Shown here: one piece after another, positions 9,986-32,197 of the stretch
Position numbering within the stretch: position 1 is the first letter of the stretch
Layout: the number at the start of each line of letters is the position of its first letter
NCBI GenBank assembly: GCA_964354105.1
Contig: CAYGXM010000002.1
Coordinates: forward strand, 14,398-78,397
Source of the DNA: Candidatus Woesearchaeota archaeon
Lineage (GTDB): Archaea; Nanobdellota; Nanobdellia; UBA10117
Direction of reading: 5' to 3'
DNA: 64,000 bases
The notes under the pieces: generated by a model
The model's database searches: none
What the model saw: only the letters and a program-made list of their open reading frames with translations
What the model was told of the DNA's origin: nothing
Translations under genes and position numbers: made by a program

Positions 9986-10615
9986 TTATCCAATCGTATA
10001 CAAAACTTCTTGTAATTTGAATGTTGTTCCTGGCTCAACAAAAACTTGCAGCTCGAAATTAGCCGAGGTAAATTCGCCTGAACTTAGGTAACAGCTATCC
10101 ATGCAAACTGCAGTAACTGAGCCGCTTGCTGAATTCTCTCCGAGATTGCCTGGCCAATCTAATTTTTTACCTTCGTCTATCAATAAGCTTGCATTTTGCT
10201 CGACTTCAACTGCATGCGCCGCAGGTATTCCTGTTGCAGTGCCTGTTATCAAGGACGGCTTTTCCTTTTGCCCGACATTTGTATAAACCAAAGACCTTGA
10301 ATTGCCATTTGCCAGATAAATTGCAACATCGCCCTCGCCCTTAGTTTCGCCGGACAAGCTGAACGAACTAATATAAATCGGCTCGCTGGAAGCTGATTTT
10401 AAATCAAGGGCCTGGCTTTCTGTAAATTCCATGTTCAGGATTTGAGCTTTTGTGTCTGATGCCACAAATCCTGTCATGGATGTACCAAAGAACAGCAAAG
10501 GCACTGCTATAATCGCAGCTATTATGAATATAAACTCGTATTTGCGAAGCTTAGACTCACTGTCAATTTTTGCATTCTTTGCTTCCTTGCCTATCATCAC
10601 TGATTTCATATTCAT
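9986..10615 (-). CDS. membrane-anchored surface protein, small paralog of the giant proteins' N-terminal module (209 aa)
   Basis: N-terminal TM, then SLSGETKGEGDVAIYLANGNSRSLVY ... ITG ... CMDSCY, the same module as in 10612-11076 and in both giants. Confidence 0.55.
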   Translation of the reverse strand: MNMKSVMIGKEAKNAKIDSESKLRKYEFIFIIAAIIAVPLLFFGTSMTGFVASDTKAQILNMEFTESQALDLKSASSEPIYISSFSLSGETKGEGDVAIYLANGNSRSLVYTNVGQKEKPSLITGTATGIPAAHAVEVEQNASLLIDEGKKLDWPGNLGENSASGSVTAVCMDSCYLSSGEFTSANFELQVFVEPGTTFKLQEVLYTIG

Positions 10616-11076
10616 TTGTAGACTACCCTGCTAATTATAATACTTGTGCTTGGTTCCAGCTCAACATACAGCGAATAAGGATGATTTTCAGTTGTGAAGT
10701 AGCAAGTTTCTTCGCAGGCATTCCTAAAGTAATTCGCATCTGCCTGGGATGCAGCAACATAGCCTGTTATTCCCGCCGGCTTTTGCGTCTGCAGGCCTGA
10801 ATAAACCAAAAGCCTATGATTGTCTGAATCCTGAAGATAAACCTTGGCCTTGCCCGGCCCTTTGATAATTCCTGTTATGCTGAATGAAGTTATATCATCG
10901 TCTATGCTTAAATTATGGGCTGATGTCTCTGAGATTTCCAAGTTTACATCCTGGCCGCTGTATTGTGGGTTAAATATGGCTGCGGAATGTGTATTTAACA
11001 AAAAGGGGGCAAATAGCACAATAATTATAGCAAGTACTAATAATATTGTCAGGTTTTTATGCTTCATCTTTTCCAA
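10612..11076 (-). CDS. membrane-anchored surface protein, small paralog of the giant proteins' N-terminal module (154 aa)
   Basis: TM, then SITGIIKGPGKAKVYLQDSDNHRLLVYSG...AGITG...CEETCY. Overlaps neighbours by 4 and 20 nt. Confidence 0.55.
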   Translation of the reverse strand: MEKMKHKNLTILLVLAIIIVLFAPFLLNTHSAAIFNPQYSGQDVNLEISETSAHNLSIDDDITSFSITGIIKGPGKAKVYLQDSDNHRLLVYSGLQTQKPAGITGYVAASQADANYFRNACEETCYFTTENHPYSLYVELEPSTSIIISRVVYK

Positions 11077-12937
11077 ATCCTATTGATGCCCTTTTCAGCT
11101 CTTCCTGGGCGAGCTTGACCTTTTCCTGCGCCATTTTCATTTTGTCCTCGGCTATTTTTTTCTTGTATTCCTGCAGCATCTTTTCAGCCTGCTGTTTTTC
11201 TGAAAATGCAATCTGTTTTATCTTTATGGCTTCAGCGCGCTCCTTTGCAATTTCCTCTTTAGCCTTTTCCTTTTCTTTTGCAATTGAATCCTGCAGGGCT
11301 TTCTTAGCTAATTGCGCAGCTTTCAGCTCTTCGGCAGCTTTCAATTTTGTTGCTTCAGCTGCCTTCACTCTTTCTATAGCTGCTTTCTTGATGTTGGCGA
11401 CATCTGAGAGCCTTTTGTTGATTACAAACTGTTCCTTCTCAAACTGCTTCATCTTTGTAGCCTTGACTTTTGCAAGCTCTGAATCTACCTTCTTCTTTTC
11501 AGCAGTTATTGCATGATTTTGTGATAGAATGTATTGATAGCGGTCTTCAACCTGTGCCCTCAACTGTTCTGCCTGTTCTTTCTCTTCCTTGATTTTTGCC
11601 AAGGCCTCCTCAACTATCTCCTTTGCAGAGCATGCGTTGTTCCTTTCCTGCTCAACTGTGCTCTTTTGTAATGCTAATTCATGAATTTCTTTTTCCAATT
11701 CCAATCTTTTCGTTTCTTCGAGCTTCAAGTCGTCCAAGAGCTTCTGCTTTAACGCATGGGTTTCTTCCAGCTCCATTGAGAGCTTTAATTTATCCTGCTC
11801 AATTTCTCTGAGTTTGTTTTCTGCTTCCCGCCTGAATCCTTCAGTCTTGGCGCGTTCTGCTTCAATCAGCTCCCGGGCTCTTTGTTTTTCATTTTCTATT
11901 TGTGCCCTAAGCTTTTCCTTTTGATTATCCATTTGCTCAGCGAACTTTCGCTTTTGCTCAGCAAGGCTTTCTCTTGCTTTTTGCTTCTGCTCGCTAATAA
12001 CCTCGAGAGCCTTGTGCAACTTCTCATCAATCCTTTCCTTTTCACCCTCAAGATTTTCCCGCTCATTGTGCACGTCCTTTAATTCTGTCTCGACCTCAGC
12101 TTTTTCTTTCATGACGGCATCAAGTTCTGCAGCAGCTTTGCGCTCATGCTCTTCGGCGTTCTTAAGCAGCTGCTCTGTCCTGATTTTCTCTTCATCCAGC
12201 AGCAACCTTGCTTTGTGTGCTTCGTCTTCTGCCAGCCGTTTTTCCTGCAATAAGCTCTCTTCAGTATCTTTTTTGATGCTTTGTAATTTCTCAATCTCGG
12301 ACTTAGCGTTCTTTTGCTCTTCTTCAATCAGCTTTCTTGCTTTCTGCTTTTCTGCAGATAGAATTTCTTCATATCTTTGCTTCAATTGAGAATATCTGTG
12401 ATTCAATGCTGAAATTTTCTCGCTTGCCCTTGCTTTTTCCTCTTCCAGCTTTTCCTTTTGGACATCCAGATTTAGCTGAACACGCTGTCTGGCAATTTCT
12501 AAGTCGTCATAAAGCCTCTTTTTCTCCTTCTCCAAGGCTATTTTTTCCTGCTGCATGCTCCCCAATTCTGTCTTAGTTTCTTGGTGTAATCTTTCTGTTT
12601 CAGAAAGCCTCTCTTCCGATGCCTGCTTTTCAGCTTCTATAGCCTTAACCCTGTCCGCCAGTTGCGTTCTTGCCTCAACAACTGTCTGGATCTGCACCTG
12701 TTTTTTCTTTTTCTCTTCAAACAGTGCATTTTCAAGTTCCTTTATTTTATTCTTGAGATTTTGATTTTCTTTCTGCAATCCTTCAATAGCATTCCGCTTC
12801 TCACCCTTCAGCCTGTCGATTTCCTGGTCTTTGACAATAGCCACGTCAAGTTTTTCAGAGATCTTTTGCTCAAATTCCTCTATCTTCTGCTTTTCTTCCT
12901 TCAATTTTTTGCTTGTGCTAAAGAGATTAAATGCCAT
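11057..12937 (-). CDS. 626-aa cytoplasmic coiled-coil protein (E/K/Q/L/A-rich, no signal or TM)
   Basis: Heptad-like low-complexity sequence throughout. Its start overlaps the end of the 3488-aa gene by 11 nt. Confidence 0.55.
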   Translation of the reverse strand: MAFNLFSTSKKLKEEKQKIEEFEQKISEKLDVAIVKDQEIDRLKGEKRNAIEGLQKENQNLKNKIKELENALFEEKKKKQVQIQTVVEARTQLADRVKAIEAEKQASEERLSETERLHQETKTELGSMQQEKIALEKEKKRLYDDLEIARQRVQLNLDVQKEKLEEEKARASEKISALNHRYSQLKQRYEEILSAEKQKARKLIEEEQKNAKSEIEKLQSIKKDTEESLLQEKRLAEDEAHKARLLLDEEKIRTEQLLKNAEEHERKAAAELDAVMKEKAEVETELKDVHNERENLEGEKERIDEKLHKALEVISEQKQKARESLAEQKRKFAEQMDNQKEKLRAQIENEKQRARELIEAERAKTEGFRREAENKLREIEQDKLKLSMELEETHALKQKLLDDLKLEETKRLELEKEIHELALQKSTVEQERNNACSAKEIVEEALAKIKEEKEQAEQLRAQVEDRYQYILSQNHAITAEKKKVDSELAKVKATKMKQFEKEQFVINKRLSDVANIKKAAIERVKAAEATKLKAAEELKAAQLAKKALQDSIAKEKEKAKEEIAKERAEAIKIKQIAFSEKQQAEKMLQEYKKKIAEDKMKMAQEKVKLAQEELKRASIGFGKDEA

Positions 12938-15900
12938 TATCTTTGTCTCCTCTTGTTATTTTCCTATTTAGATAATTGCTGACCTTATCGTAGAGCCTCT
13001 CCAGGTGCTTACGCTCCTCCGCCAATAATTCAACTTCCAGGGCCATCTCCTCTCTCCTTTTTACAATAAGGGCTATAATAAATATTACGGTTACTGTTGC
13101 GGCTAGAATCCACCACAGCCACCTTCCACCAAAGAACTGTGCTATATTTATCGAGGGCAATGTGGGCAGAACAAATCCGGCAGCTGGCAATGCTTTTCCG
13201 CATATCTCCAGCTGAATTTCTTGGACCATGCCATATGCAGACTTTATCAGATTCCTGGCTAAATCATAATTTCCTCTTGCAGCCGCATCTTCTGCTGCCT
13301 TGAGGATATTATCAAGATCTGTAGTCTTTGTTTTCAATTCATTATACATATTTCGAAGCTCAATCAAGCTGTTGATTATATCCTGCGGAACTCCTGGTGG
13401 CAACACAGGCGCAGTGATGTTAACAGGCACACCAACAGCAGGTGCTGGTGCTGGCGGCACTACGGGCGGAATAACTGCAGACGTGACATCAAAGGCCTTG
13501 CTGGCATTCGCATCAGCTGTCGGCCAGGTTAGTTTAGACACGAAAAGGTACGCGCCAGGCGTTGACGGCGCCGTCAATGTTATCGCGGCTGTAGCTGACT
13601 GGTTTCTTCCAATAAAGATGGTCCGCACATCTAACGCAGTAATGTTTCCGAATGAGTCTTCAATCCATGTTGTCAATGTTCGGTCTTCAGATATTTCCGA
13701 ATTCATGTTAATTGCCTTGACGACTCCTGTAATTGTGCTGCCTGCCGTAACGGATGCGGGCAGGCTGTCTATAATAACATCATACGGGCCGCCATAGCCA
13801 GGTATCTGCACAGAAGGCTGGTTTGAATAATAAAATACCGCATTTGCAGAAGCTGTCGCCTGGGTAAAGTTGTATGTATAGCTTTGGCTGCTCTTTGCTA
13901 TCAATTTTGTCCCATTAAAGGACACTGATGCTCCTCTTGTGAGATTTACAAATGTTGTTAATCCAATATCTGAATCTACAACAGATATTCCAGTTAAATC
14001 CTCTCCGCCCGCATTTACAATCTGGTCCGTTATGAGATATGTTATATTAGTTGTTGTCTGGTTCACAAATGCGACATTCTTGATCAAAATCAGCTGTGCT
14101 GCAGTAATGTTTTGCGGTATCACAATAATTGGCTGGTTTGATTCCACAAACAAACTTGTATTATAGAATGGGTCATAGCCTGTGGCGTTCGCTTTTTGCA
14201 GTGTTATAGTATTATCAACAGAACCCCGTGCGTATGTTAGCAAATAGCTCTCTATGACTTCCTGTGCACCATAAATGGAACCTATGCTCCAATTCTGGCT
14301 GGCGTCAGGGTCTGTTAGTATGGTATTCTCTGACGTTCCTCTTCCATTTGCAAGGTATAATGAAATGTTATAAGTGATATGTGATGAGTTTATGGCCTGC
14401 ACGCTCGGTATTTTATGCAAGAGAAGATTTGCCTTCTGGCCTGATTCAAGTAAGAAAACGCTGTTGTTTGTATAAACACCAGCATGATAATATGTTTTTG
14501 TTGCATTTATTCTTGCATCATATATCTTAGGTGAAGCCATGCCTGTCGTGTCCAAAGTGCAATTATAGAATCCGCTTCCTTCTTCAACATCATAGCAGGC
14601 ATATACAAAACTGCCATTTATTGGCTCAAATTTAGCATTCGCGCCCGTAATAGGATTTGCCAGCTCGTCATAAACATAACCTTTGAATGTAATATTCTGC
14701 CCTTCATAATATTTCGGCGTTCCTGTTGGAGCAGTTACATATGCATACAAAATGCCAAACACATTCAGGAAGTGTGTCGATGTTGCTGCTGTGTAGTTTT
14801 GTGTCTCAGGCAGAATTAATGTTATATTTCTAGGCCCTAATGCAACGTAAGACGTAAGATTTGTTATAATTGGCGCCCCATTATTAATCAATGCACCATT
14901 GTCGTACAACTGCATATTGCCTTCTCCAGCATTGCGGATTCCAGTTATGTTTACAGTCTGGCTCCTATTGACATTAAAGTCACTATTTGTTCCATTCAGC
15001 AGTAATGTGATGTTTGCTGCAGCTTTGTTAACAGTTACAAAGAACGTTTTGCTGCTTGCCGTGTGATTAAAGTCTCCAGGATTAACAACAGTGTAATTAT
15101 AATAGCCCGCAGCTAAAGTTACTGCAGTATTATTTTCAGCATTTATGTTTGTTCCATTTCGGTACATTGTTGCAGATAATAGATTTGTTGAAAACACTGC
15201 TGTAACAGTCTGCGGATAAGTTATATTCAAATCACTTTCAGCACCATTCAAGCTCAAGTTAACATAAGTCTGGGCAATATTTACAGTCAGGAAGAATGTC
15301 TTTGAGCTGCCAGTCTTGTTTGCATCGGTTGGAATAACTGCAGTATAATTATAATAACCTACTGCTAAAGTCGTAATTTCTGAAGTTCCAACATTAGTTC
15401 CATTTCTGTATAATGCCACAGTTCCATTATATCCGATTGCAGTTACATTAGTTGAAGTGCCATAAGTTACAGTCAGATTATTCTGTGCTCCATTTAGATA
15501 CAAATCGACTGCAGTCGGCTGTATGCCGACTGTTAATGTTCTGTTAATGGTATTTGAAGTATAATTTTCTCCGCCTGTTGTATTATATGTATAAACATAA
15601 GTGTTAACTCCTAGTGTTGCAACATCTGAAACTACTGAGCCGCTTCCAATTGTAGTACTATTTCTATACATAGTATACGTTACGTCAGAATCATTTGTAT
15701 TGCTTTCAAATGCGGTTGCATTTGTTTGTGTTGGGTATGTAACGGATTTATCGGCAGCAACGCCATCCAGCAATAAGTTTACTGTTGGTGTTGCTTTGTT
15801 GACTGTCAAGAACCAGGTTTCAGAGCTTGGCAGGTAATTTGAATCACCAGAATTTATGGCGGTGTAGTTGTAAGTTCCGGCTCCTAATGTTGCAATTTCA

Positions 15901-18900
15901 GGATTTGTGACATTAGTTCCATTCCTGTATAATGCCACAGAGCCCGCTGATGTTATTGCAGTAGCATTGCTTTGAGCTCCATAAGTTATTGTGGCATTTG
16001 CCTGTGCTCCATTCAGATACAAGCTGGTTGTTGTCGGCATTTTATTGATTATATAGGTAAATGTGCCTGTGCTGTTTGAATTTCCGGCAGTGTCGTTTGC
16101 ATACCATTTGTAATTATAGCTGCCAGCATTCAATCCGACAAAGGTCTTGCTGTAGACATCTCCAGATTGGACTGCATTAGTGTAATTTGTCCCATTAAAC
16201 TCGAATATTACTGTTCCTACGGCATAATTATCTGTCCAGGTTGCATTGAATTCATATGTCTGTGTCGGTGAGTATGTTGTGGGGCTTGCCGGGCTCTCTG
16301 AAAGATTGAAATATTGCGGCGGAGTCTTGTCTATCACAAACAAGACGGATTCAAATGATGGATAGCCAACATTATTCCTTGCATATACTGTAAGATTATA
16401 TGTGCCTGAAGGCAAAGCGCCTACATTAACTAAGTCAGTCCAGTTAAATATAGGCTGGTTTATTGAATTATTTGAATTTGACTGCACAATCGCACCTGTT
16501 GAATTAGTTATATTATACGAGCTCGCAGTAAGCATGTTGTTTTGTATAAATACATTCAAGTTGAAGTTGGAGCCCCATTGCGAGTTATTCAATGGTGTGA
16601 AAATCTGTATGAGTGGGGGGGTATTATCTATTGTAAAGTTTACTGAGCTATTTTGCTGGTTTCCTAATGTATCATTCGCATACGCTGTAAAGGTGTAATT
16701 GCCTTCGCTGACAGTTGTGGTGTCCCACGTATCATTATAAATTGGCTCTGTCCCCGACATTGTTCCTGATTTCACAATTCCTGACGTATTAGTTATTTCA
16801 TACCAGACAGAATTAACGCCAACTAAATTATCTGTAACATTAACTTCCAGAGTAGTAGTAAAGCCCAAGATGTCATTCTGTACTGGCCTGATATGGACTA
16901 TTACCGGTGGTGTTGCATCAACTGTCAACAATCTTGTTTCACTCTGGCCTGTATTGCTGGCCCCGTCAGTGCAGTTTACATACCATTGATTATATCCTTC
17001 AAGCACTGTTGTATTTGTTATTGTTGTTGCTGTATTATTCGCAACAGAAGCATTAGTTCCGCTCGGCGCATCATTAATGTAAAGCGTACAATTTATGGTT
17101 GTATATTGATTATCTGTTGCATTAAATATAAAATTCTGTGTTTGTGTTGTGCTTGTTGTATTGTTACCTGGCGACATCAAGTTTACAACTGGCGGCGTAG
17201 CATCAACTGTAACAGTCCAGTTTGCCGGCGCGAATGCACAGTTGTTTGATGTGTCGCAAGCCAGACAATTCCACAATATTATACCATTATTCAGATTAGT
17301 TTTTTGGAAAGTTGTTTCATTTGATGTTCCTGTAATTATATTTGTGCTATCGGCTGAGAAAATTCCCGTATAATTCCAATACAAGGTCATGTTAGCAAGC
17401 TGATAATTATCTGTTGCATTACAAGTGAAGTTAAGGTCTTTCCCATTTGCGCTTCCGTTTGGCGGATTCACAAGTGCAGTAGTCGGAGGCGCGCAGTCAG
17501 TTATGTTTATGCTGTCAGACACTGTTATGCGTGGCCTGGTTGGGAACGTTGTCTTGATACAGCTTACATTGTAGGCCTTCAGGCCTGTTGAGCTGAAAGT
17601 TCTTGCATACTGGTAATAATTCGATGTGGCATTATAGGTCATTGAATTGCCTGTTGAGTCTGTGAAATTTATGATGCAAGTAGCACCTGTATTTGTAAAG
17701 TTGTTTCCGCCGAGCACCCTGTAATAATACGCATAAAAGTCTATTGAGCTTCCAACGCAGGCGGGTCTGTTGTTGCCGGGCATTCCAGTGTCATTCTGGT
17801 CCCAGATGAGCAATCTGGAAGTTCCATTTGTCGAGAAATTGGTGAAATGCGCAACATCAAATGTCACTGTTCCTGTTGTATTTTCATAAGTGACATTCTG
17901 GCAAGTCGTGTTGCTGCATATTTCGCCATTAATAAGCACGTTAAAGTCCTCAGTATCGCTCCAGTTAAGGCCTCGTAGCTTCAATTGTGCGCTTGAGTTA
18001 AATGTTGGATTCAGGCCAAAGTCAACTGAAATAAAGTTGTCCGAAATGTTTACATAAGTGTCAAAGTTCTGGCTTGCTGCATTTACACAGCCCTGCCATT
18101 GTATCTGTCCGTATGATGGTATTTCCAGTACTGCCTGCCCATTACAAACATTTGTCAAATCAGGCAGCGTCGCCCAATTTGTCGTATTGCCTGTGTAATT
18201 TGTTGAAATTGGAACTGCAGCTGTGTTGACAGCAAGTGCGTATGTTGCAGAGTTATTTGCATTTCCTGCAGCATCAGAGGCTCTGCAATACCAGTTGTAA
18301 TTGCCATTTGTCATGGTTTTGCTGAATGTTGTGCTGTTGCTTGTTCCAGTAACTATATTCGTCTGGTTCAGCACGCTGTTTATGTAAAGTGAAATATTTG
18401 CGAGTGCGATATTATCTGTTGCAGAACAGTTGAACAGCACAGAGCCATCGCCGTCTACCGCATTATTGGCGGGGCTGTTCTGAGTAACTGTCGGCGGGGT
18501 TATATCCGGAACAGTTACATTAAATGTCATTATATTCGTTGAATTCCAATTGCCCTGCGTGTCATTTGCCCAGATTCGCCAGCCAATTATGCCGCTGGCG
18601 GAGCTGTTGCTCCAAGTAAAGTTGCTCCAATTTCCAGTGCTCGGGCCTATTTGCAGCGGGGAACCATAAACTCCAGTCTTATTTGCCCAAACTCCACCAG
18701 ATTCATTTGTTGAAAGCATTGCATAACTCAAGTTTACATTGTCTGTCCAGTATGCAGAGAGCTTAATTGAGCCAGTATTATTTATTACACTCGCATTCTG
18801 GCTCTGGCTTGACCATCGTGGCGGTTGTATATCTGTCCAATTAACTATAAGTCTTGGCTGCCGAGATGTATTGGTTGCATCATTGCTGCTCACATAATAT

Positions 18901-21900: not shown

Positions 21901-23393
21901 GCCTGCAAAAATACCCAATCGATGCAAAATTGATAAGTTTCATTTGTTTCGTCGTCATAAACATCAGAACACGTTCCAAGACATTCCTGCGTTGCAAAGT
22001 CCCAATTAGCGCATTTATACAAGACTGTACCTTTTGCTTCTACTGTTACAGTTGCTTCGGTAAATTCAAAGCCAGTAGGGTCAATTGCATAAACTTCAGC
22101 ATAGCCTTCATAATCTCCTGTTTCTGGAACATCATCCAGCTTTATGAATTCTGTAACATTTTCATCTATGACTAAATCATCAAATATTATTTCTTTTACG
22201 GGGTGATTTTGCGGCTTTACCTTGATGTCATACTTGCCTTTAGGGATATCCAAGCCCGCTTCTCCTGTTTCTTCTTCAACAACTGCTGCCCCCTGGAATA
22301 ATGGAATCTCTTCAATGGATTTTTCTTTTTCTTCGCTTTTGCCTATGGCTTCAAGCTCGTCAGTTTCCGCATCAACAAATTCAATCGTAGCTGCAATTGT
22401 GTTATTACTTGAATCTTCGATGCCTGTTGCAAAGAAAACCGTTTCATTTGTTATATTTTCAACCTGAGAAATTAGCAACTCATAATAAATAGAATCCAAT
22501 TTCAAAACTGCTTCGGATTCTATTTCAATCTGCAAGATATAGCTGCTTTTATTCAGCATTTCAGAAATATAACAAGTTTCTTCACAAACAGTTTCAAATA
22601 GGATTTCTTCGGCTAATGGAATTTCTATTGTTTGGTTTTCAGTTACATTTTCAAGTGTTGTAACATTTTCTTCAGGAATTGTGATGTTTTCTGTTGGAAT
22701 TTCTGTTGGTTGAGTTTCATTTGCTGGTTCTTCAGCTGGAGGCTGCTCAACTGGAGGGATTTCCTCTGCTGGAGGTTCTTCAGTTGGCGGAATTTCTGCG
22801 CCAGAGCCACTGGTGGTGTCAGCCTCATTTGGCTGGCTTTCGTCCGGAGAAGATAATTCTCCGGAGGATGGTGGCTCTGGCTGTGCAGTTCCAAGCGGAT
22901 TTGCTAATCCGCTGGATCCCGCTGAACTTTGTTCAGCTTGGTCCTGCGAATTCGTACTCTCATCGGAGGATGAGCTTGATTCGGTATCTGCTGCGGCAAA
23001 AGCAGTAATAGGAGAGGGTCCTGTTTTGAGGTTTGAAGAATCGAAAATTAATAATCGGCTGGAATCTGTGACAAGATAAACCTTGGCATTTCCGGTAATT
23101 GCACCTGAGAGTTTTACAGAAGTCAGCTGGAACTCCCCTGCAGGAACGTTCTGTAAAGTCCAGTTATATTCATAAGTTTCTGCAAATTTCTCATTAATAA
23201 CATCAGAATATGCTTTCTGCTCTCCTGCTGCAAAGAAACCAATAATTCTAGGTCCTGCAACAAAAATAAATGCAACAAGCGCAATCAGCACAACTATAAA
23301 CCCAATTATCAATAGTTCTTTTGCTATTGGCTTGTGGGCATATTCTTTTATCTCCCTTTTCACTTTTTTCAATTTTGATTCTTCTGATTTCAT
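12927..23393 (-). CDS. giant cell-surface protein, 3488 aa
   Basis: Uninterrupted 10.5-kb ORF with an N-terminal TM and the shared AKVYL/CEETCY module. Contains an acidic S/E/P/T linker, Ig/Fn3-like repeats with a WIYWxWTNPxDSDF motif, and about 80-aa tandem repeats (LYRNGTNV...YNYTA). Hundreds of N-x-S/T sequons, a Pro-rich stalk, and a C-terminal TM plus about 45-aa charged tail. Confidence 0.8.
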   Translation of the reverse strand: MKSEESKLKKVKREIKEYAHKPIAKELLIIGFIVVLIALVAFIFVAGPRIIGFFAAGEQKAYSDVINEKFAETYEYNWTLQNVPAGEFQLTSVKLSGAITGNAKVYLVTDSSRLLIFDSSNLKTGPSPITAFAAADTESSSSSDESTNSQDQAEQSSAGSSGLANPLGTAQPEPPSSGELSSPDESQPNEADTTSGSGAEIPPTEEPPAEEIPPVEQPPAEEPANETQPTEIPTENITIPEENVTTLENVTENQTIEIPLAEEILFETVCEETCYISEMLNKSSYILQIEIESEAVLKLDSIYYELLISQVENITNETVFFATGIEDSSNNTIAATIEFVDAETDELEAIGKSEEKEKSIEEIPLFQGAAVVEEETGEAGLDIPKGKYDIKVKPQNHPVKEIIFDDLVIDENVTEFIKLDDVPETGDYEGYAEVYAIDPTGFEFTEATVTVEAKGTVLYKCANWDFATQECLGTCSDVYDDETNETYQFCIDWVFLQAITPGETYSFTLTPDDPGFAEGSPSSGTPDAGYVTDNEGDDEEGGTYTATQADDTTYFYAGETSTDTLNSVIVLEYNISSLGITGADITNMTFSATYCHDGSGSAPAACDGDAAEGSWTGTQDVWIYNWTSSTWVDIGDLRTNDGGNTVVDSYTVTSGLLHYVNSSGWVRTRYEAIGSVGDSQDSWLVMDYVPLTINYIDNDPPTTPTSITCDGSSCNSIFYEDVNISCSGSTDADNDTITYVIDAYYNHSTSSETATQVPSSCSDSTYASGSYEFYSQWTIPGSGTATLTKLWFWQADTSLSASETLEMALYSSGGNQISEEVTLTGTGASGWISGTLATPITITLGQTYYVGVAPISATYNLGRDDSANCANYPPTGTGSYYESSTNNDLDSTVPTGSQSGNKYIIPGITYTIGGYNYSWTAIGNHTNESTYLWNLSGIAEQSNVDLRCRAIDLAGSNTYSDYSAMNYNLTIASTPPPDTTPPAAVTNLNETSTGTTWIYWAWTNPGDSDFSEAIIYVDGSNILNTSNAYYNATGFSCNTTHNITINTKDTTGNVNTTNVMDSAVTLACSDTTPPAAVTNLAVSSRGATWIYWTWTNPADSDFNHTEIWIDGSYTANVSTPSSSYNATGFSAATSHTIGTRTADNSGNVNATFVNNTAQTYAVSADQNNSVTNAAGAPVNVALTIINSTGQTVYSQTNTVHNFDLFGGNYTIIIQPASSASVSAITYYNYTVDGSFALPGLDEPTPAAGSLAEFAVNPLGQFQTATLTVNPAGDVLTRCDNYTYTLQSCDEDYWATEAYGLTPGTLYNITFVPGDQTGFAAFNFTTSGGFEVQGVNTYSGTAVTNDSYIRAGSTGSNYGSASSIRVGRSGGAGVHRGIIKFNLSSIPSGVRIDNANLSLYMFNNVDGAGARTHGAHKVQQSPARNWVELQVTWNVYSTGNSWTTTGGDFAANELANTSVNAVGFYYWNVTADVQNFTDNQAQNFGWIIKDETESGTNRKYYVSSNDATNTSRQPRLIVNWTDIQPPRWSSQSQNASVINNTGSIKLSAYWTDNVNLSYAMLSTNESGGVWANKTGVYGSPLQIGPSTGNWSNFTWSNSSASGIIGWRIWANDTQGNWNSTNIMTFNVTVPDITPPTVTQNSPANNAVDGDGSVLFNCSATDNIALANISLYINSVLNQTNIVTGTSNSTTFSKTMTNGNYNWYCRASDAAGNANNSATYALAVNTAAVPISTNYTGNTTNWATLPDLTNVCNGQAVLEIPSYGQIQWQGCVNAASQNFDTYVNISDNFISVDFGLNPTFNSSAQLKLRGLNWSDTEDFNVLINGEICSNTTCQNVTYENTTGTVTFDVAHFTNFSTNGTSRLLIWDQNDTGMPGNNRPACVGSSIDFYAYYYRVLGGNNFTNTGATCIINFTDSTGNSMTYNATSNYYQYARTFSSTGLKAYNVSCIKTTFPTRPRITVSDSINITDCAPPTTALVNPPNGSANGKDLNFTCNATDNYQLANMTLYWNYTGIFSADSTNIITGTSNETTFQKTNLNNGIILWNCLACDTSNNCAFAPANWTVTVDATPPVVNLMSPGNNTTSTTQTQNFIFNATDNQYTTINCTLYINDAPSGTNASVANNTATTITNTTVLEGYNQWYVNCTDGASNTGQSETRLLTVDATPPVIVHIRPVQNDILGFTTTLEVNVTDNLVGVNSVWYEITNTSGIVKSGTMSGTEPIYNDTWDTTTVSEGNYTFTAYANDTLGNQQNSSVNFTIDNTPPLIQIFTPLNNSQWGSNFNLNVFIQNNMLTASSYNITNSTGAIVQSNSNNSINQPIFNWTDLVNVGALPSGTYNLTVYARNNVGYPSFESVLFVIDKTPPQYFNLSESPASPTTYSPTQTYEFNATWTDNYAVGTVIFEFNGTNYTNAVQSGDVYSKTFVGLNAGSYNYKWYANDTAGNSNSTGTFTYIINKMPTTTSLYLNGAQANATITYGAQSNATAITSAGSVALYRNGTNVTNPEIATLGAGTYNYTAINSGDSNYLPSSETWFLTVNKATPTVNLLLDGVAADKSVTYPTQTNATAFESNTNDSDVTYTMYRNSTTIGSGSVVSDVATLGVNTYVYTYNTTGGENYTSNTINRTLTVGIQPTAVDLYLNGAQNNLTVTYGTSTNVTAIGYNGTVALYRNGTNVGTSEITTLAVGYYNYTAVIPTDANKTGSSKTFFLTVNIAQTYVNLSLNGAESDLNITYPQTVTAVFSTNLLSATMYRNGTNINAENNTAVTLAAGYYNYTVVNPGDFNHTASSKTFFVTVNKAAANITLLLNGTNSDFNVNRSQTVNITGIRNAGEGNMQLYDNGALINNGAPIITNLTSYVALGPRNITLILPETQNYTAATSTHFLNVFGILYAYVTAPTGTPKYYEGQNITFKGYVYDELANPITGANAKFEPINGSFVYACYDVEEGSGFYNCTLDTTGMASPKIYDARINATKTYYHAGVYTNNSVFLLESGQKANLLLHKIPSVQAINSSHITYNISLYLANGRGTSENTILTDPDASQNWSIGSIYGAQEVIESYLLTYARGSVDNTITLQKANATGYDPFYNTSLFVESNQPIIVIPQNITAAQLILIKNVAFVNQTTTNITYLITDQIVNAGGEDLTGISVVDSDIGLTTFVNLTRGASVSFNGTKLIAKSSQSYTYNFTQATASANAVFYYSNQPSVQIPGYGGPYDVIIDSLPASVTAGSTITGVVKAINMNSEISEDRTLTTWIEDSFGNITALDVRTIFIGRNQSATAAITLTAPSTPGAYLFVSKLTWPTADANASKAFDVTSAVIPPVVPPAPAPAVGVPVNITAPVLPPGVPQDIINSLIELRNMYNELKTKTTDLDNILKAAEDAAARGNYDLARNLIKSAYGMVQEIQLEICGKALPAAGFVLPTLPSINIAQFFGGRWLWWILAATVTVIFIIALIVKRREEMALEVELLAEERKHLERLYDKVSNYLNRKITRGDKDNGI
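14700..16300. repeat. intragenic tandem DNA repeats, about 245-nt period, encoding Ig-like repeat units
   Basis: Recurring gttccatttc(g/t)gta(c/t)a(a/t)tg..cacag blocks near 15151, 15397 and 15914, plus recurring aattataata(g/a)cc..gctaaagt blocks near 15100 and 15340. Confidence 0.5.
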
Positions 23394-26300
23394 TAGAGCT
23401 TGATTTTCTTGCCACCGTGCCTTACATGATGGAATAATACTGCAAGAATGGTTACAGCTAGCCCTGCCAGAAAAACAGCTATGCCCAAAACGAGCTTGTC
23501 AGCGGGGATTGTGGTCTGCAGTGCTGTAACTGCAACAGTGGCGCCTGTAAGAGGTGTTTTAACAAAAGTGAATATCAGCAGGATGATAATCGTAATTATC
23601 AAAGCGATGTGCAATGCAGTCAGGGCATTTTTCAGCCGCGGCGGCAGATTTTCTTTCCTCATGGCAGCTATAGCAAATACAAGAATCAACAGTAAAAGTG
23701 TTGGAACAGCATACAATGGATTAGGAGCCTTGTATGGGCTGACTTGTACGGCTGCACCTGATAGAGGTTCTGGTGGTGAAGAGGGGATTTCCAGTCCTGC
23801 AGGCGTTGTCTCTGTGGGCGGGGTTGTTGAAACTGGAACAGTTTCCACTAGAATTATAATCCTTAATTTTGCTGAAGTATTTGTTTTTGCAATTAATGTG
23901 ATTTCGATATCGCTCTCACCATTATAATTAGCGTCTACATCTTTTGTTTCGTTTAATTCAAGATTAACTTTAACAGGCGCTGAAGTTATAGTTAGCTCTA
24001 CATAATCAGGGAACATTCCAGATAGCCTAATTGTATGAACTGTATTTGGTGAATAGCTTGCCGCATATGAAAACGTGCCGCCAAATGCCAAGTCTAAGTC
24101 TTTTGGCTGGCCAGGTGACAGGACAGCTTCTGCAGTTGCATTGCCAATCACGCCTGTACCACCGCCTCCACCACCATTATTGCCATTATTTCCGCCGGCT
24201 GCAGACGCCACGCTAAATGAATGCATTGTGCTAACATTGTTTACATTTCCAGAGGTATCGTTGCATTTGTAATACAAAGTATATGTCTGGCCGTTGCTCA
24301 AACCTGCATATGTAAAGTTGTGGTTTGTCGAGTCTGTATTTGTAAAGTTAGTTCCATCTGCGTAGGCAAAAGTTGAATTTGTTGTATTATATCTGCAAAT
24401 TGCATCCTCATTTGTTGTTATTTCGATTGTAGTTGAAGTTGTGCCTGCGCTTAACTGAGAGCCATTTGTCGGGCTCGATATCGTTATAACTGGCGCTGTT
24501 GTATCAGGCAATGCAGATATTGTAACATTATCCTGTCCTATTGCGCCATTTCCAGTGCCATCATTAGGTGTTACAACACATTTCCAAACATCTCCAATAG
24601 TTGTTAAAAGATTTGATAATGTATTAGCTGTCTGGCCTACCTGCAAGACATCATTCTTGTACCATTGATATGCATAATTAATTGAATCATTGTCCAAATC
24701 TGTTGATGCGCTTGTGATTGTCGCAACTAAATCTTCAGTATCTGCAGGCACATTTGGAATAACATCTACAACAGGAGCTGACGGCAAGGAGTTTGTTATA
24801 GTCCTTGCGACAGATTTTGCAGTTCCATAATCATTTCCATCATATGGAATAACTGAGCAATTCCACGTTTCTGTTTTTGTTGTATTGCCCGCTGCTAATA
24901 TTACAGAATTCTCAGTTCCGTTTGTTACACTTAATATTGCTGATAGAATTGCTGTTGAACCATTATACCAAGTGTAATTAGCAGTTAGTGTGTCTACAGC
25001 ATCAGCATCTGTTATTGTAAATGTGCAATTCAAGTCATCATTTGTATAAGCTATTGCAGGCGTTATTGCTGGTGTTGTGGAAACTGGGATATTATTGTAT
25101 GACAAAGTTCTAGCAGTTGAATTTACATCAGTATTATTGATGTTTCCATTTGTATCTTTAGTATGCACAGTTAGTGTATAATCCGTAAAGTTTTGCAGGC
25201 TTGTTGCATTATAATAATTATTTGACGTATTCGCAACATTGCTTCCATTTAGATAGATAATGGCCTGGCTGAAATCAGCATCAGCAGGATTAGTCCAGTT
25301 CCAATATATCCAAGTCTGGCTTCTGCTTTGATTTGCCAGGCTGGTTACTGAAGCAGGAGGTGTTGAATCTGCATGCAAAGTAACGGTTCTTGTTTCTGTA
25401 TTAGCTTTGTTTCCAGCAGTATCAACAGCATAGCCTTTGAAAGTGTAATTTCCATAAGATAGGCCTGTGAAATTATTGTAGTACTGGTTTGCTGTTGCGT
25501 TGTATAATGCAAGAACTTCAGAGCTGGACAAAGCTCTCCTGAACATCATGACATCATCAATTGAGCCATTAAGATAGCTTGCCTGATATCTGCCAATCAG
25601 TATGTTAAACGACTGATCCTGGACATCTCCTGTTTGAGCCTGCGTCCTCACTAGAGTACCATTGATATAAAGATTAATGGAACTTCCATTGTACACACCA
25701 ACTGCATGATACCATGTGTTTGTTGAAATAGGATATGTGGAAGTTGCCTTGTGTGTTGTTGCATTGGCGACATCAAAAATCAGATTAGTAGTTGAGATAT
25801 ACAAATTATAAGAGCTTGACGAAGCTGCCCTGTTGCTTACCAAGCCTGCTGATTGCGAATTTCTATACTTAAACCATAAGGAAATAGTCATCGCGGTAGT
25901 AAAATTAAAATCCTCATTATATGTCACTTGAATATATTGAGATGACGCTGAGTCAAAGTCATAACTTCCATTAAACACGCCGCTAGAATTATATGTTGGG
26001 CAAACTGAACATGAGCCAGTGTTTCCACTGCCAGAATCATCTGTAAATGATGTTCCACTAGTCTCTTCTAATCTCCACCAGCCGACTAATGCACTATCCC
26101 AATCCAGCATAGCATAGTGCTGGCTGCTTTCATCGGTGCTGCTTGCATTCACATAAACATAATTATTAGTTGTTGTATTTCCATCGCTTGGCGTTGGACT
26201 TACAAAGGAAATTGTTGGCGCTGCTCCTGTTTCACCATATGCAGGGTCGCTTGCTGTTAATGTTACCTCATATGGCTGGCCTGGTGTTATTTCCTGAACA

Positions 26301-27622
26301 AAAGTCCAGTTGCCATCTGTGCAAGTCTGATTTTCAAAGTCCCAACTCGCACATTTGTATAATGCGCTTCCTGTTGCAGTCACTGTAACAGTAGCTTCTG
26401 TAAAGTTAAGTTCTGTTGGATCAATAGCATAAACTTCAACATAACCTGTATTTGCTTCTGGAACATCATCAATGCCAATTACAGCATTTACATCGGATGT
26501 TGCATCAATGTCTTTGAATTCTATGCTCTGGATTGGAACACTTGTGTTCTGAACATCCACAACAAGATTATTTTCATCACTCGGAGCTGTTTCAAAGCTC
26601 TCCATATTGCCTTCGGCAGATATCTCATTGGCAGGAGGTGCAAAGATTTCGTTAGCTATAGTTTGCTGTCCTGTTGTTTCTTCAGCAACAACAGATTTTC
26701 CAGAATCGTCAACTAAAGCTATGTCTGCTGCAACTGGCTGGCCGTTGCTGTCTACAATTTCTATAGTTATGTTAACGGGAATATCTGTAAGATTCTGCAA
26801 TGAATAGCTTATTTCAGAAATGGAGAGCTCTCCATTTTCCACTTGGATTTCAAGAGTGTAAGTATTATCAGCCAAACCATCTGGAAGCAAGCAAGATTGC
26901 TCGCATGAATCCGTAAATGTTACAGGTGTTATCTCTATTGGCAGTGTTTTATTCACGATTTCTTCTGCAGTTACGTTTTCTGTTGTTGAGACATTCCCCT
27001 CAGCAGGTGGAATTTCTGTTGGTTGAGTTTCATTTGCTGGCTGTTCTTGAGCTGGCGCAGGTAATTCTGCGCCAGCTTCGCCTTGATCTGTGGTGTCAGG
27101 TACAGATTCCTCTTGAGCATTAGTTTGCTCAGAGGATGGTGGCGAAGCTGGTTCTGCAGACTCCTGCGAATCGGAGGATTCGCCGGAGCTACCCACATCT
27201 GAACTGGTGGTGTCAGATGAGCTTGAACTTGGATTGCTGATAACTTCAGTAAGAGCGCCTGTAACGGCATCCGCGAGAGATTCACTTTTCACTAGATTGC
27301 TAGAATCAAAAACGAGATAAGTTTCATTTCCAGTTTTTAGAAAGACTTTAGCAGAGCCTTCTCCGCTAAAAGAACCTGAAATCTTTAGGGCTTTCAAATT
27401 GTAAGGCTGTTCTTGGGGAATTTCAAATGTATAATCGCTGTTTGATGTGAATTTTTCATTAATGGAAGCTGAAAAATCTTCAGCAGGCGCAAAATATCTG
27501 CCTGTGATTTTAGGATTATGAAATAAGACTACGAGAGCTACGACTATGATAGCTGTTATGAGGAAAATGTATGTTGTTGCACTAGCTATAGGTTTAGTTA
27601 GTTTGCGGTCTGACACCACCAA
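23393..27622 (-). CDS. giant cell-surface protein, 1409 aa, with LamG (concanavalin A-like) domain
   Basis: N-terminal TM and the shared module. LamG signature at aa ~505-708 (LVGWWRLEETSGTSFTDDSGSGNTGS ... MTISLWFK ... WYHAVGVYNGSSINLYINGT), nt ~25499-26110. One WIYWNWTNPADADF Ig-like domain, a Gly-rich stretch, a TPP-rich stalk and about 4 C-terminal TM helices. Its stop overlaps the next ATG by 1 nt (TAATG). Confidence 0.8.
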   Translation of the reverse strand: MVVSDRKLTKPIASATTYIFLITAIIVVALVVLFHNPKITGRYFAPAEDFSASINEKFTSNSDYTFEIPQEQPYNLKALKISGSFSGEGSAKVFLKTGNETYLVFDSSNLVKSESLADAVTGALTEVISNPSSSSSDTTSSDVGSSGESSDSQESAEPASPPSSEQTNAQEESVPDTTDQGEAGAELPAPAQEQPANETQPTEIPPAEGNVSTTENVTAEEIVNKTLPIEITPVTFTDSCEQSCLLPDGLADNTYTLEIQVENGELSISEISYSLQNLTDIPVNITIEIVDSNGQPVAADIALVDDSGKSVVAEETTGQQTIANEIFAPPANEISAEGNMESFETAPSDENNLVVDVQNTSVPIQSIEFKDIDATSDVNAVIGIDDVPEANTGYVEVYAIDPTELNFTEATVTVTATGSALYKCASWDFENQTCTDGNWTFVQEITPGQPYEVTLTASDPAYGETGAAPTISFVSPTPSDGNTTTNNYVYVNASSTDESSQHYAMLDWDSALVGWWRLEETSGTSFTDDSGSGNTGSCSVCPTYNSSGVFNGSYDFDSASSQYIQVTYNEDFNFTTAMTISLWFKYRNSQSAGLVSNRAASSSSYNLYISTTNLIFDVANATTHKATSTYPISTNTWYHAVGVYNGSSINLYINGTLVRTQAQTGDVQDQSFNILIGRYQASYLNGSIDDVMMFRRALSSSEVLALYNATANQYYNNFTGLSYGNYTFKGYAVDTAGNKANTETRTVTLHADSTPPASVTSLANQSRSQTWIYWNWTNPADADFSQAIIYLNGSNVANTSNNYYNATSLQNFTDYTLTVHTKDTNGNINNTDVNSTARTLSYNNIPVSTTPAITPAIAYTNDDLNCTFTITDADAVDTLTANYTWYNGSTAILSAILSVTNGTENSVILAAGNTTKTETWNCSVIPYDGNDYGTAKSVARTITNSLPSAPVVDVIPNVPADTEDLVATITSASTDLDNDSINYAYQWYKNDVLQVGQTANTLSNLLTTIGDVWKCVVTPNDGTGNGAIGQDNVTISALPDTTAPVITISSPTNGSQLSAGTTSTTIEITTNEDAICRYNTTNSTFAYADGTNFTNTDSTNHNFTYAGLSNGQTYTLYYKCNDTSGNVNNVSTMHSFSVASAAGGNNGNNGGGGGGTGVIGNATAEAVLSPGQPKDLDLAFGGTFSYAASYSPNTVHTIRLSGMFPDYVELTITSAPVKVNLELNETKDVDANYNGESDIEITLIAKTNTSAKLRIIILVETVPVSTTPPTETTPAGLEIPSSPPEPLSGAAVQVSPYKAPNPLYAVPTLLLLILVFAIAAMRKENLPPRLKNALTALHIALIITIIILLIFTFVKTPLTGATVAVTALQTTIPADKLVLGIAVFLAGLAVTILAVLFHHVRHGGKKIKL

Positions 27623-27673
27623 ATGTGACCATCCTCCGATTACTAATTTTATAGTATGGGTATATTATAAATG

Positions 27674-28351
27674 TTACTGTATGTTTGCAGTAAGCTCTTT
27701 TCCAGCTACTTTTACATTATCTGCAGTGCCTCTAATTTGGAGCGTTCCCTGCGAAACTGTGAAGTTACCTGCGAAATTCTGCAATTCGAGCTCTTCATCA
27801 GTTAATTGCACGACAATCTTGCCTGAATTAACGTCAACTTTTCCTGAAGATGTGTATGAAAACTTGTCTAGCTGGAGATTTAAGGTTATTGAATTATAAT
27901 TCATATCAAGATCCATATCAAGGCTCTTCTCATTTGGCAAAATCCTCACTTTATTTACAGAAAGCTCCGAGGTTTTTCCTGTTAAGGCTGCTGAATTGCT
28001 GATTTTTATGCTTCCATCAAAATTCTTCAGTTCTAAACTGCCTTGCTCTATCTGGGACAAGTCTAATTTCTCAGAATTGACAGAAATTTGGCTTGTTGGT
28101 TTGGTAAATTCTAAATTTATGCTACTGGCCTTGCTCAGCTCCAAAGGTTTCAAGTCCAAATCAGCAGAAATATCAAATTTAGTTTTATTCAATTGATTTT
28201 CGCCTGTAAGCAGGCCCGTAACACTGTCTTTTGTTTTGTCTAAAGCATCTGAAAATGCGCCAGGAGCAAATTTACTTACTGCAACCCCTGCTGCAGCTAT
28301 CAAAAGCAATAATACAACCATAAATAACACTGATTTGCGTTTCAAGGTCAT
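27674..28351 (-). CDS. N-terminally anchored membrane protein (225 aa), first gene of the surface-protein operon
   Basis: N-terminal TM helix. Same strand, with only a 51-nt gap to the 1409-aa gene. Confidence 0.45.
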   Translation of the reverse strand: MTLKRKSVLFMVVLLLLIAAAGVAVSKFAPGAFSDALDKTKDSVTGLLTGENQLNKTKFDISADLDLKPLELSKASSINLEFTKPTSQISVNSEKLDLSQIEQGSLELKNFDGSIKISNSAALTGKTSELSVNKVRILPNEKSLDMDLDMNYNSITLNLQLDKFSYTSSGKVDVNSGKIVVQLTDEELELQNFAGNFTVSQGTLQIRGTADNVKVAGKELTANIQ

Positions 28352-28376
28352 GGCTCTGCCAGAATAAAGTGCACGC

Positions 28377-28390
28377 TATAATTTAAATAC
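28377..28390. promoter_or_regulatory. TATA-like box (TATAATTTAAATAC) in the divergent intergenic region
   Basis: TTTAAATA matches the archaeal TATA consensus TTTAWATA. It is the only intergenic AT box between the minus operon start (28351) and the plus gene at 28416. Confidence 0.35.
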
Positions 28391-28415
28391 TTCTACTTCT
28401 TCACAAAAAGCAAGG

Positions 28416-29928: not shown

Positions 29929-29959
29929 ATTATAAAAAATAAAAGAAAAGAAGTATTTA

Positions 29960-29982
29960 TAGCTAACGGATGACGTTAGCTA
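29960..29982. promoter_or_regulatory. perfect hairpin TAGCTAACG-gatga-CGTTAGCTA next to TATTTATAG
   Basis: 9-bp stem with a 5-nt loop, 32-54 nt upstream of the minus-strand ATG at 29928 and 32 nt downstream of the stop at 30014. Confidence 0.3.
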
Positions 29983-30013
29983 TTCCTCTAACTTGTCTAT
30001 AAGCAAGTTAGGG

Positions 30014-31185: not shown

Positions 31186-31223
31186 TTTTGCCTCCTAATT
31201 GTTTGCTAAAAGTGACGCTAGCA

Positions 31224-31234
31224 ATTATATATAC
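31224..31234. promoter_or_regulatory. TATA box ATTATATATAC upstream of the minus gene starting at 31185
   Basis: AT box about 40-50 nt upstream of the ATG. Confidence 0.35.
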
Positions 31235-31244
31235 TTTTCTAAGG

Positions 31245-32147: not shown

Positions 32148-32170
32148 GGCCTTAATTGAAGTGTGAAACC

Positions 32171-32188: not shown

Positions 32189-32197
32189 CTACAATAA

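Follow-up and report, generated by a model that had tools for sequence, protein, structure and literature searches.

The 64,000-nt stretch of contig CAYGXM010000002.1 analysed here (the window) carries six co-directional genes on its minus strand, named g1 to g6 in the order in which they run from 28351 to 9986 (Table 1). Two of them, g2 and g3, code for giant proteins, and four of the six products (g2, g3, g5, and g6) begin with one common unit, referred to below as the N-module. A first-pass annotation of this DNA had described a single operon of giant glycosylated surface proteins that takes up about 29% of the window. All six genes were reproduced at the same positions in our table of open reading frames (ORFs), and the cluster measures 18,366 nt, or 28.7% of the window. 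Direct reading of the junctions also confirmed the close packing reported earlier. The g2 and g3 genes overlap by 1 nt in the TAATG at 23393, g5 and g6 share the ATGA at 10612-10615, g3/g4 and g4/g5 overlap by 11 and 20 nt as called, and the only gap is the 51 nt between g1 and g2.

Some of the starts may differ from the called ones. The g2 homologues P0036 and P0038 begin with VSDRKL (P-numbers denote homologous proteins) and a GGAGG motif sits 10-16 nt upstream, so the real g2 start is most likely the GTG two codons inside the called ORF. In an independent assembly of the locus (L001), g5 is called from the ATG at 11067 (151 aa), which reduces the g4/g5 overlap to 11 nt. The homologues of g6 are about 13 residues shorter at the N-terminus; therefore, the ATGA overlap may not be the start in use. 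Judging from several features of the sequence, g1 to g6 are genes and not chance ORFs, because the frames of g2 (4.2 kb) and g3 (10.5 kb) run without interruption at a GC content of 40%, homologues exist for g1 and g6 (39-89% identity) and for the giants in related loci, Pfam domains were recognized, and the sequence from the end of g3 through g6 is identical in L001. No DNA tandem repeats able to collapse the assembly were found, and together with the identical independent assembly this ruled out an assembly artefact caused by repeats.

The N-module was seen by alignment of g2, g3, g5, and g6. It consists of a short charged N-terminus, a transmembrane (TM) helix, an (I/V/L)TG motif, five β-strands with S-G..G.AKVYL and LLVF/Y motifs, and a second ITG, followed by a variable loop, a C-x2-[ST]-C-Y motif, and two final strands (Y.L.VE.E...I.Y). 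The loop of the giants is enlarged to about 90-130 acidic residues rich in Ser, Pro, Glu, and Thr. A profile hidden Markov model (HMM) built from the four proteins matched all giants located behind g1 or ahead of g6 in the related loci, each at its N-terminus, as well as all homologues of g5 and g6; g5 homologues were found in L008 and L006/L007. No Pfam or NCBIfam model matched the module, and no Pfam match was obtained even at E<0.1. An exhaustive search of 1.84 billion representatives gave 1223 matches at E<=1e-3 and 670 at E<=1e-10, and the family comprises at least 1223 clusters at 50% identity, with members recorded so far from Woesearchaeota-like DPANN archaea. The match lies at or near the N-terminus in nearly all full-length listed proteins. 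Among the best 150 of the 1223 matches, 108 are shorter than 300 aa and 23 have at least 1000 aa, the family being mostly of about 200 aa; the TM helix is present in 145 of these 150, C-x2-[ST]-C in 148, and an exact ITG after the helix in 69. The predicted fold is a jelly-roll that may resemble carbohydrate-binding modules (CBMs; CBM6, CBM32, and CBM36 served for comparison). The two small surface proteins of the first-pass annotation, g5 and g6, are not unrelated proteins: they are free copies of the N-terminal module of the giants. We found no description of a family common to giants and small proteins in the libraries and papers searched.

Cytoplasmic extensions of 50-95 residues precede the helix in 12 of the 150 listed homologues, which suggests that the helix acts as an uncleaved signal anchor. 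Some N-module giants among the homologues outside the window (P0082, P0149, and P0157) have 70-95 residues of cytoplasmic domain at the N-terminus. At the end of P0149 and P0157 there are repeated helix-rich cytoplasmic units (motif ...LQLTYHEIAELLNRNERTIWTAYNKSK...) similar to DNA-binding repeats, a hint that part of the family may signal across the membrane.

The domains of the giants were identified by Pfam and NCBIfam scans of the whole proteins and of chunks. The LamG domain noticed earlier in the 1409-aa giant g2 was clearly recognized (Laminin_G_3, 94 bits against a cut-off of 27.6). Profile scanning, which had been proposed as a check of both giants, also yielded DUF4082, a disaggregatase-related repeat, and immunoglobulin (Ig)-like domains in g3. 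The disaggregatase-related family (PF06848) was likewise recorded on giants of the relatives. The Ig-like domains of g3 lie at about residues 1665-2270, and diverged repeats continue to about residue 2900, with internal and cross-locus matches over residues 2000-2880. No catalytic or ATPase domain was detected in the 4.9 thousand residues of the giants, in whole or chunked scans. A sequence search of the PDB with g3 and g4 gave no matches, and with g2 it gave only single-chain variable fragment (scFv) chains, which we attribute to the Gly-rich stretch of g2. Hydropathy indicated an N-terminal TM helix in g1, g2, g3, g5, and g6, three C-terminal TM helices in g2, one in g3, and none in g4. These predicted N- and C-terminal helices support the view of the giants as membrane-anchored extracellular proteins. 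The C-terminal block of three TM helices of the g2 type is kept in L003, L009, P0036, P0038, P0139, and P0177.

The proposed glycosylation of the cluster proteins was supported in part. The number of N-X-S/T sequons was 166 in g3 and 49 in g2, compared with 72.8 +/- 7.6 and 25.7 +/- 3.9 in shuffled sequences, which is about twice the number expected from composition, and cytoplasmic neighbour proteins have 0.41 sequons per 100 aa. N-glycosylation is therefore a reasonable prediction for the giants, but not for g1, g5, and g6, which have 1-2 sequons each and no excess over shuffles. No AglB gene was found among the window ORFs scanned.

The fourth gene codes for a Glu/Lys-rich protein that had been taken for a cytoplasmic coiled coil. 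This is well supported by its predicted properties, as it has no TM helix and no proline, and its periodicity of 3.5-3.6 residues is strong (0.59 versus 0.23 +/- 0.06 in shuffles). No match to g4 was found in Pfam, NCBIfam, or the PDB. In L008 (73% identity) and L015 (44% over the C-terminal part), a homologue of g4 is the next gene behind a g3-type giant, and the 11-nt overlap of giant and g4 was read in both the window and L015. In fact, g4 was found only directly behind g3-type giants, and in all three lineages that have this type of giant (the window, L008, and L015), while L003 and L004 have neither. An alignment of five g3-type giants showed that the motif LL.EER.HLE.LY.KV..YLNR of their cytoplasmic tail is strongly conserved; this tail and the first 100 or so residues of g4 are the best-conserved regions of their respective proteins. 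The g4 start is preceded by a GAGGAG motif at a distance of 9-14 nt. We infer that g4 may be translationally coupled to g3 and physically linked to the g3-type tail, a pairing of which we found no description in the libraries and papers searched.

The genes were proposed to belong together, and their order indeed recurs in relatives down to about 50% identity (related loci are L003, L004, L006-L012, L015, and P0031). L009 has a divergent SpoIIM-like gene, g1, a 2139-aa giant, and a giant of more than 865 aa, and L010 and L011 have the SpoIIM-like gene, g1, and an N-module giant. The other end of the cluster is seen in L008, from a Woesearchaeota metagenome-assembled genome (MAG), with the end of a g3-type giant, g4, g5, and g6. 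L015 and L006, which lie on one 129-kb contig, contain a 2255-aa giant, a 2563-aa g3-type giant with LamG, g4, a 96-aa protein, a 2832-aa giant, and g5-like and g6-like genes. In L003 and L004, a 1912-aa giant and a giant of 2547 or 2865 aa are followed by g6, and both g4 and g5 are absent. The P0031 locus contains g1 and genes for proteins of 172 and 196 aa with no giants between them, and a 3735-aa giant lies beyond SpoIIM. Thus, the small genes and the location are stable among relatives, whereas the number, length, and order of the giants vary. BLAST comparison of the giants showed that the first 500 or so residues and the C-termini are conserved (30-72% identity) and that the interiors are rearranged. 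There are three types of C-terminal anchor, namely the 3-TM block of the g2 type, the helical stalk with one TM helix and a conserved tail of the g3 type, and a proline-rich stalk with one TM helix. Shuffled interiors between kept ends are as expected for contact proteins.

The first gene codes for a member of a narrow family with an N-terminal TM helix and an all-β ectodomain, and it is always divergent from a SpoIIM-like gene. A TATA-like element, TATTTAAATTATA, was read upstream of g1, and the g1 homologues of L009 and L010 are preceded by A/T-rich boxes at comparable distances. This element is a candidate g1 promoter, which would give a very short leader or none. The gap between g1 and g2 holds another TATA-like box, which is conserved as TTTATA(A/T)TATA in the window, L009, and L010 and as CTTATAATATA in L011/L012. 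About 14 variable bases separate this box from a conserved stretch (GTAATCGGAGGATGGTCACATTTGGTGGTGTCAGACC...). The g2 leader shows three-way identity at 30/30 positions in the window, L009, and L010, compared with 12-25/30 over most of the g1 coding region; that is, it is 100% identical although the g1 DNA of the three genomes is just 73-74% identical. Exact matches to the leader are confined to L009 (7802-7831) and L010 (9607-9636), and a variant occurs in L011/L012 (L011, approximately 9640-9680), where g1 is 39% identical. In the L011 relative, part of the leader cannot be coding in the same frame. Folding of the conserved leader revealed no significant RNA hairpin (z 0.15 and -0.38), so this explanation of its conservation was unsupported; an operator or the translation-initiation context is possible.

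The spacing in the g1-g2 gap fits an archaeal promoter with a leader of about 20 nt that carries a Shine-Dalgarno motif, and the gap looks like a second promoter with a 5' untranslated region for g2-g6, in which case g1 may be a unit of its own. The conserved box and leader therefore make a single promoter upstream of g1 doubtful, and with it the earlier proposal of one transcript from a promoter at 28352-28415. There are no gaps from g2 to g6, where the genes overlap or abut; Shine-Dalgarno motifs precede g2 and g4; and runs of five T occur at 0.49 per kb in the cluster compared with 2.8 per kb window-wide, with no run of six or more. The g6 ATG, too, has a TATA-like run ahead of it, at a distance of 17-27 nt. 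Taken together, g2-g6 are probably one transcript from the conserved candidate promoter in the gap, and g1 may be a separate transcription unit or may be read through. No description of such a conserved internal promoter and leader was found in the libraries and papers searched.

Table 1. Positions in the window of the cluster genes, their predicted features, and neighbouring genes (residue numbers refer to the protein named).
Feature	Position	Strand	Description
g1	27674-28351	minus	225 aa, ATG start
g2	23393-27622	minus	1409 aa, TTG start as called; predicted N-terminal TM, split N-module, conserved head domain, LamG, FN3/Ig-like domains, three C-terminal TM helices
g3	12927-23393	minus	3488 aa, ATG start; predicted N-terminal TM, split N-module, head domain, DUF4082, FN3-like, disaggregatase-related repeat, many Ig-like domains, helical stalk, one TM, conserved cytoplasmic tail
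g4	11057-12937	minus	626 aa, ATG start; Glu/Lys-rich, proline-free predicted coiled coil, no TM helix or signal peptide
g5	10612-11076	minus	151-154 aa (154 aa, TTG start as called); stand-alone N-module protein, predicted TM and jelly-roll, long loop absent; module HMM E 2e-61
g6	9986-10615	minus	209 aa or slightly shorter, ATG start; stand-alone N-module protein, most conserved member of the cluster
g2 N-module	26798-27562	minus	Residues 21-128 and 216-275; domain E 5e-42 and 5e-17; acidic Ser/Pro/Glu-rich loop of ~90 residues between
g2 LamG/concanavalin A-like lectin domain	25514-25945	minus	Residues 560-703; Pfam Laminin_G_3 E 1.3e-26
g2 triple-TM anchor	23420-23725	minus	Residues 1300-1401; hydropathy segments 1300-1323, 1330-1363, 1372-1401
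g3 N-module	22476-23306	minus	Residues 30-156 and 243-306; domain E 2e-38 and 9e-16; acidic/proline-rich loop inserted
g3 DUF4082	20682-21041	minus	~Residues 785-904; PF13313 E 1.4e-7, 32 bits against a cut-off of 28.4 (421-aa chunk)
g3 disaggregatase-related repeat	18843-19352	minus	Residues 1348-1517; PF06848 E 1.8e-13 (whole protein), 4.9e-16 (chunk)
g3 best-scoring bacterial Ig-like domains	16593-16907	minus	Residues 2163-2267; Big_7 E 3e-10, Big_3_3 E 4e-12, Big_13 E 3e-7
g3 C-terminal unit	12930-13391	minus	~Residues 3335-3488; predicted extracellular helical stalk, TM 3424-3447, charged helical cytoplasmic tail
TATA-like element TATTTAAATTATA	28373-28385	minus	22-34 nt upstream of g1 ATG, read from sequence
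TATA-like box TTTATAATATA	27661-27671	minus	g1-g2 gap, 39-49 nt upstream of g2 start
g2 leader and start region GTAATCGGAGGATGGTCACATTTGGTGGTGTCAGACCGCAA	27603-27643	minus	Holds GGAGG Shine-Dalgarno motif and TTG/GTG/GTG start codons
IF-2B-family gene and form III RuBisCO	730-3145	plus	Adjoining genes; the former possibly ribose-1,5-bisphosphate isomerase
UPF0175-like gene and following gene	7746-9010	plus	UPF0175-like protein (sub-threshold match), then protein whose homologues show faint DUF3368 (PIN-like) matches
SpoIIM-family gene	28416-29195	plus	Membrane protein
Four surface-type genes	29287-32207	minus	Predicted secreted/membrane proteins of 213, 194, 197, and 320 aa
213-aa protein gene	29287-29928	minus	Predicted N-terminal signal and C-terminal TM
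Two genes with common C-terminal domain	30592-31185 and 31245-32207	minus	C-terminal domain of ~145 aa, 32% identity, terminal motif G-Q-x-A-G-x-Y-x-N-T

The cluster is chromosomal and lies, as far as its gene content tells, in a small-genome DPANN archaeon (Woesearchaeota-like), because the GC content is uniform across it, no relatives of the N-module were found in 2.9 million viral contigs, and gene order is kept in relatives. The same three points excluded a mobile-element or viral origin. The window contains a form III RuBisCO gene with a neighbouring IF-2B-family gene, genes for aIF5B, GluRS, Lhr helicase, and the proteasome alpha subunit, and other housekeeping genes. A scan of genome collections and GTDB found a g6 relative in only one species-representative genome, a Ca. 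Woesearchaeota MAG, and one relative of the cluster sits on a 723-kb contig. The assignment to a small-genome archaeon in the first-pass annotation thus held. The RuBisCO and IF-2B-family genes form an AMP/nucleotide-salvage pair typical of DPANN archaea, and the pair also lies near the cluster in the P0031 relative. A tRNA scan and an Rfam scan of the window gave no matches.

Several neighbouring genes were also recorded. The UPF0175-like gene and the gene that follows it, at 7746-9010, are a possible toxin-antitoxin pair, and this candidate pair is kept beside the cluster in L003-L006. On the other side, the SpoIIM-family gene is divergent from g1 in all relatives looked at (L009, L010, L011/L012, and the P0031 locus), which suggests a functional or regulatory link through the common 64-nt intergenic region. 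Just past it lie four further genes for predicted secreted or membrane proteins, none with a Pfam or NCBIfam match, which extend the surface-protein island to about 22 kb. They are a variable insertion, because the SpoIIM-like gene directly abuts a major facilitator superfamily (MFS) transporter gene in L010. The 213-aa protein is a stand-alone copy of the membrane-proximal C-terminal domain of the giants, with matches to residues 3010-3130 of P0049 (E 2e-20), to a 1894-aa giant of L009, and weakly to residues 1165-1243 of g2. Together with the small N-module proteins, this means that the neighbourhood has small free counterparts of both ends of the giants. The two proteins that share a C-terminal domain have a TG motif after the N-terminal hydrophobic helix, as in the cluster proteins.

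We consider it fairly probable that the locus codes for a multi-protein adhesin-like surface complex of a Woesearchaeota-like DPANN archaeon, with the two modular giants as its working parts. The giants would be exported by the Sec pathway, N-glycosylated, and projected from the membrane, and the variable interior of each would attach to glycans or proteins of other cells or surfaces. The g5 and g6 proteins would co-assemble with the giants through the N-module, which would be close to the membrane if the N-terminal helix stays uncleaved as a signal anchor. The g4 protein would bind the conserved cytoplasmic tail of the g3-type giants and so tie the external adhesin to an internal scaffold, and g1 would be a membrane-anchored, β-rich, lineage-specific accessory subunit. 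In this scheme, g2-g6 would be transcribed together from the promoter in the g1-g2 gap and g1 from its own upstream promoter. By analogy with published work on DPANN archaea, host attachment is a plausible function (PMC6642349; PMC10266531). Several points weigh against this picture. An episymbiotic way of life may not apply to all Woesearchaeota. The cluster showed no catalytic site and no known ligand-binding site of adhesins, and the predicted structure of g1 is poor and matches nothing. The proposed contact of g4 with the tail is based on adjacency in three lineages and on sequence conservation only. In addition, the ITG motif fits the -3/-1 rule for signal peptidase I, so that cleavage is possible; if the helix is cleaved, the module would be at the distal tip and not at the membrane.

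The features that make the giants look like adhesins have to be weighed against other uses of large surface proteins. There is a minor but appreciable chance that the giants are structural envelope glycoproteins of a surface layer (S-layer) or sheath, with g1, g5, and g6 as anchoring or spacing subunits in roles like those of SlaB and SlaA. The sequon-rich giants with a C-terminal TM helix and a membrane-proximal helical stalk have the general build of archaeal S-layer anchors (SlaB, tetrabrachion), the small N-module proteins are well conserved, and the cluster occupies a fixed chromosomal place. However, lattices are normally formed by just one or two conserved proteins (PMC5744192), whereas these giants are mosaics of 1.4-3.5 thousand residues whose number, size, and domain order differ even between close relatives, and one relative has g1, g5-like, and g6-like genes without a giant between them. 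The set of LamG, DUF4082, disaggregatase-related, and Ig domains is typical of adhesins and glycan binders, which also argues against an S-layer. The same disaggregatase-related, CBM-like, and LamG domains occur in surface proteins that bind or degrade glycans, and an amino-acid permease gene and an MFS transporter gene lie near the cluster, as would suit giants that capture or degrade extracellular polysaccharides for nutrition. We regard this as quite unlikely, given that no glycoside hydrolase, lyase, or other catalytic domain was found in the giants, chunked scans included, that the giants have no informative PDB sequence matches, and that the transporter genes do not accompany the giants throughout the relatives.

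Two further readings concern the way in which the proteins might be assembled. The short charged N-terminus, hydrophobic helix, and β-sandwich of the N-module recall archaeal type IV pilins (Pilin_N), two g6 homologues are named 'competence protein ComGC' by the Joint Genome Institute (JGI), and the N-module profile weakly matches the archaeal filament protein PDB 8fj5 (E 0.15), so that g5 and g6 could be pilins and the giants modular pilins in a filament held together by the N-terminal helix. The 8fj5 match is not significant, however, and is carried by the hydrophobic helix. The FlaFind-like class III signal motif ([KR][GA] before the helix) occurs in 3 of 145 family members, being absent in the other 142, and in none of g2, g3, g5, and g6. 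The predicted N-module has a disordered linker and not a helix packed on the sheet, and the cytoplasmic extensions of the twelve homologues do not suit a pilin. Every complete giant in the locus and its relatives has a C-terminal TM anchor that would keep it from being drawn into a filament, and no pilus ATPase, platform protein, or prepilin peptidase is encoded within the window. On the rarity of the motif, the extensions, the TM anchors, and the lack of nearby machinery, we rejected the pilin reading as very improbable. A secretion 'straw' like the SPEARE-type giants of nanohaloarchaea, which would pass effectors into a host, is scarcely credible here. It would account for a giant, membrane-anchored, Ig-rich protein in a DPANN genome together with a coiled-coil element (PMC10266531), but g2, g3, g4, and their neighbours have no VirB4/TraG-like or other ATPase domain, g2, g3, and g4 have no sequence similarity to solved secretion components, and the C-terminal TM helices (three in g2, one in g3) argue against it.

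Within the adhesin-like reading, a more specific model can be stated, although we think it unlikely. In this model, small and giant members of the N-module family would co-assemble into a membrane complex that is mechanically coupled, through the g3-type tail and g4, to a cytoplasmic scaffold. If true, it would be the first account of the molecular components of a DPANN attachment structure, one that works in archaea as adhesion receptors coupled to cytoskeletal adaptors do elsewhere. Life in attachment to other cells is assumed for DPANN archaea. According to a cryo-electron tomography study of a Nanobdellota attachment organelle, the proteins of such organelles are unknown (PMC11420986). The locus offers conserved, testable candidates in Woesearchaeota, i.e., two variable giants, an N-module that links giants to abundant small proteins, and a coiled-coil partner. 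If the N-module mediates assembly, about 1200 clusters of hypothetical proteins would gain a role, and if the link of g4 to the tail holds, it would show how an archaeal external adhesin connects to the cell interior. If none of this holds, the locus still documents the known investment of small genomes in giant surface proteins. Pacearchaeota and Woesearchaeota have been reported to contain many common lineage-specific families of unknown function and, in addition, large extracellular proteins of another type (PMC8204110).

The cluster was also compared with known systems. The adjacent genes Giant1-5 of Apilactobacillus kunkeei also code for giant extracellular proteins, take up a large share of a small genome, and are thought to act in cell interaction (PMC12863079). 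However, they are bacterial, with unrelated domains and anchoring, and the likeness is an analogy only. The C-terminal unit of g3 resembles Sulfolobales SlaB and Staphylothermus tetrabrachion (general review, PMC5744192) in its helical stalk, single C-terminal TM helix, and N-glycosylated ectodomain, for which g3 has sequons only. Sequence similarity to these proteins was not detected, and g3 differs from them in its much greater size, its mosaic and variable make-up, an additional N-terminal TM helix, and its conserved cytoplasmic tail. The disaggregatase-related surface proteins of Methanosarcina have one repeat domain in common with g3, whose residues 1348-1517 match Disaggr_repeat above the cut-off, but the catalytic regions of disaggregatase were not detected in g3.

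The general kind of locus is already known, since giant LamG/Ig proteins and LamG operons have been described in DPANN archaea as host-contact factors (PMC10266531; PMC6642349). Like the giant surface proteins of this group, g2 and g3 belong to a small-genome DPANN archaeon, exceed 1000 aa, have a predicted export signal and anchor, and combine lectin-like with Ig/FN3-like repeats. The LamG operon of Ca. Nanohalococcus occultus (SVXNc_0801-0831) similarly consists of co-directional genes for secreted or membrane LamG proteins that are read as host-recognition factors (PMC10266531). It differs in its trimeric-autotransporter-like and MSCRAMM-like proteins, and N-module, g1-like, and g4-like partners were not reported for it (PMC10266531); in the present cluster, LamG is found in g2 only. 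A further parallel is provided by the giants of cultivated Nanohaloarchaeota (SPEARE of Ca. Nanohaloarchaeum antarcticus; SVXNc_0300, BNXNv_0298), which are likewise very large, Sec-exported, membrane-anchored DPANN proteins made mostly of Ig/FN3-like repeats, strain-specific, rearranged between relatives, and proposed to act in host contact (PMC6642349; PMC10266531). No relationship to them at the sequence level was seen, although no test aimed at one was made. SPEARE-type giants are single proteins of 5,000-9,400 aa with a VirB4/TraG-like ATPase domain and a neighbouring ATPase (PMC10266531), whereas this cluster has two smaller giants without an ATPase, an N-module, small paralogues of it, and a separate coiled-coil protein.

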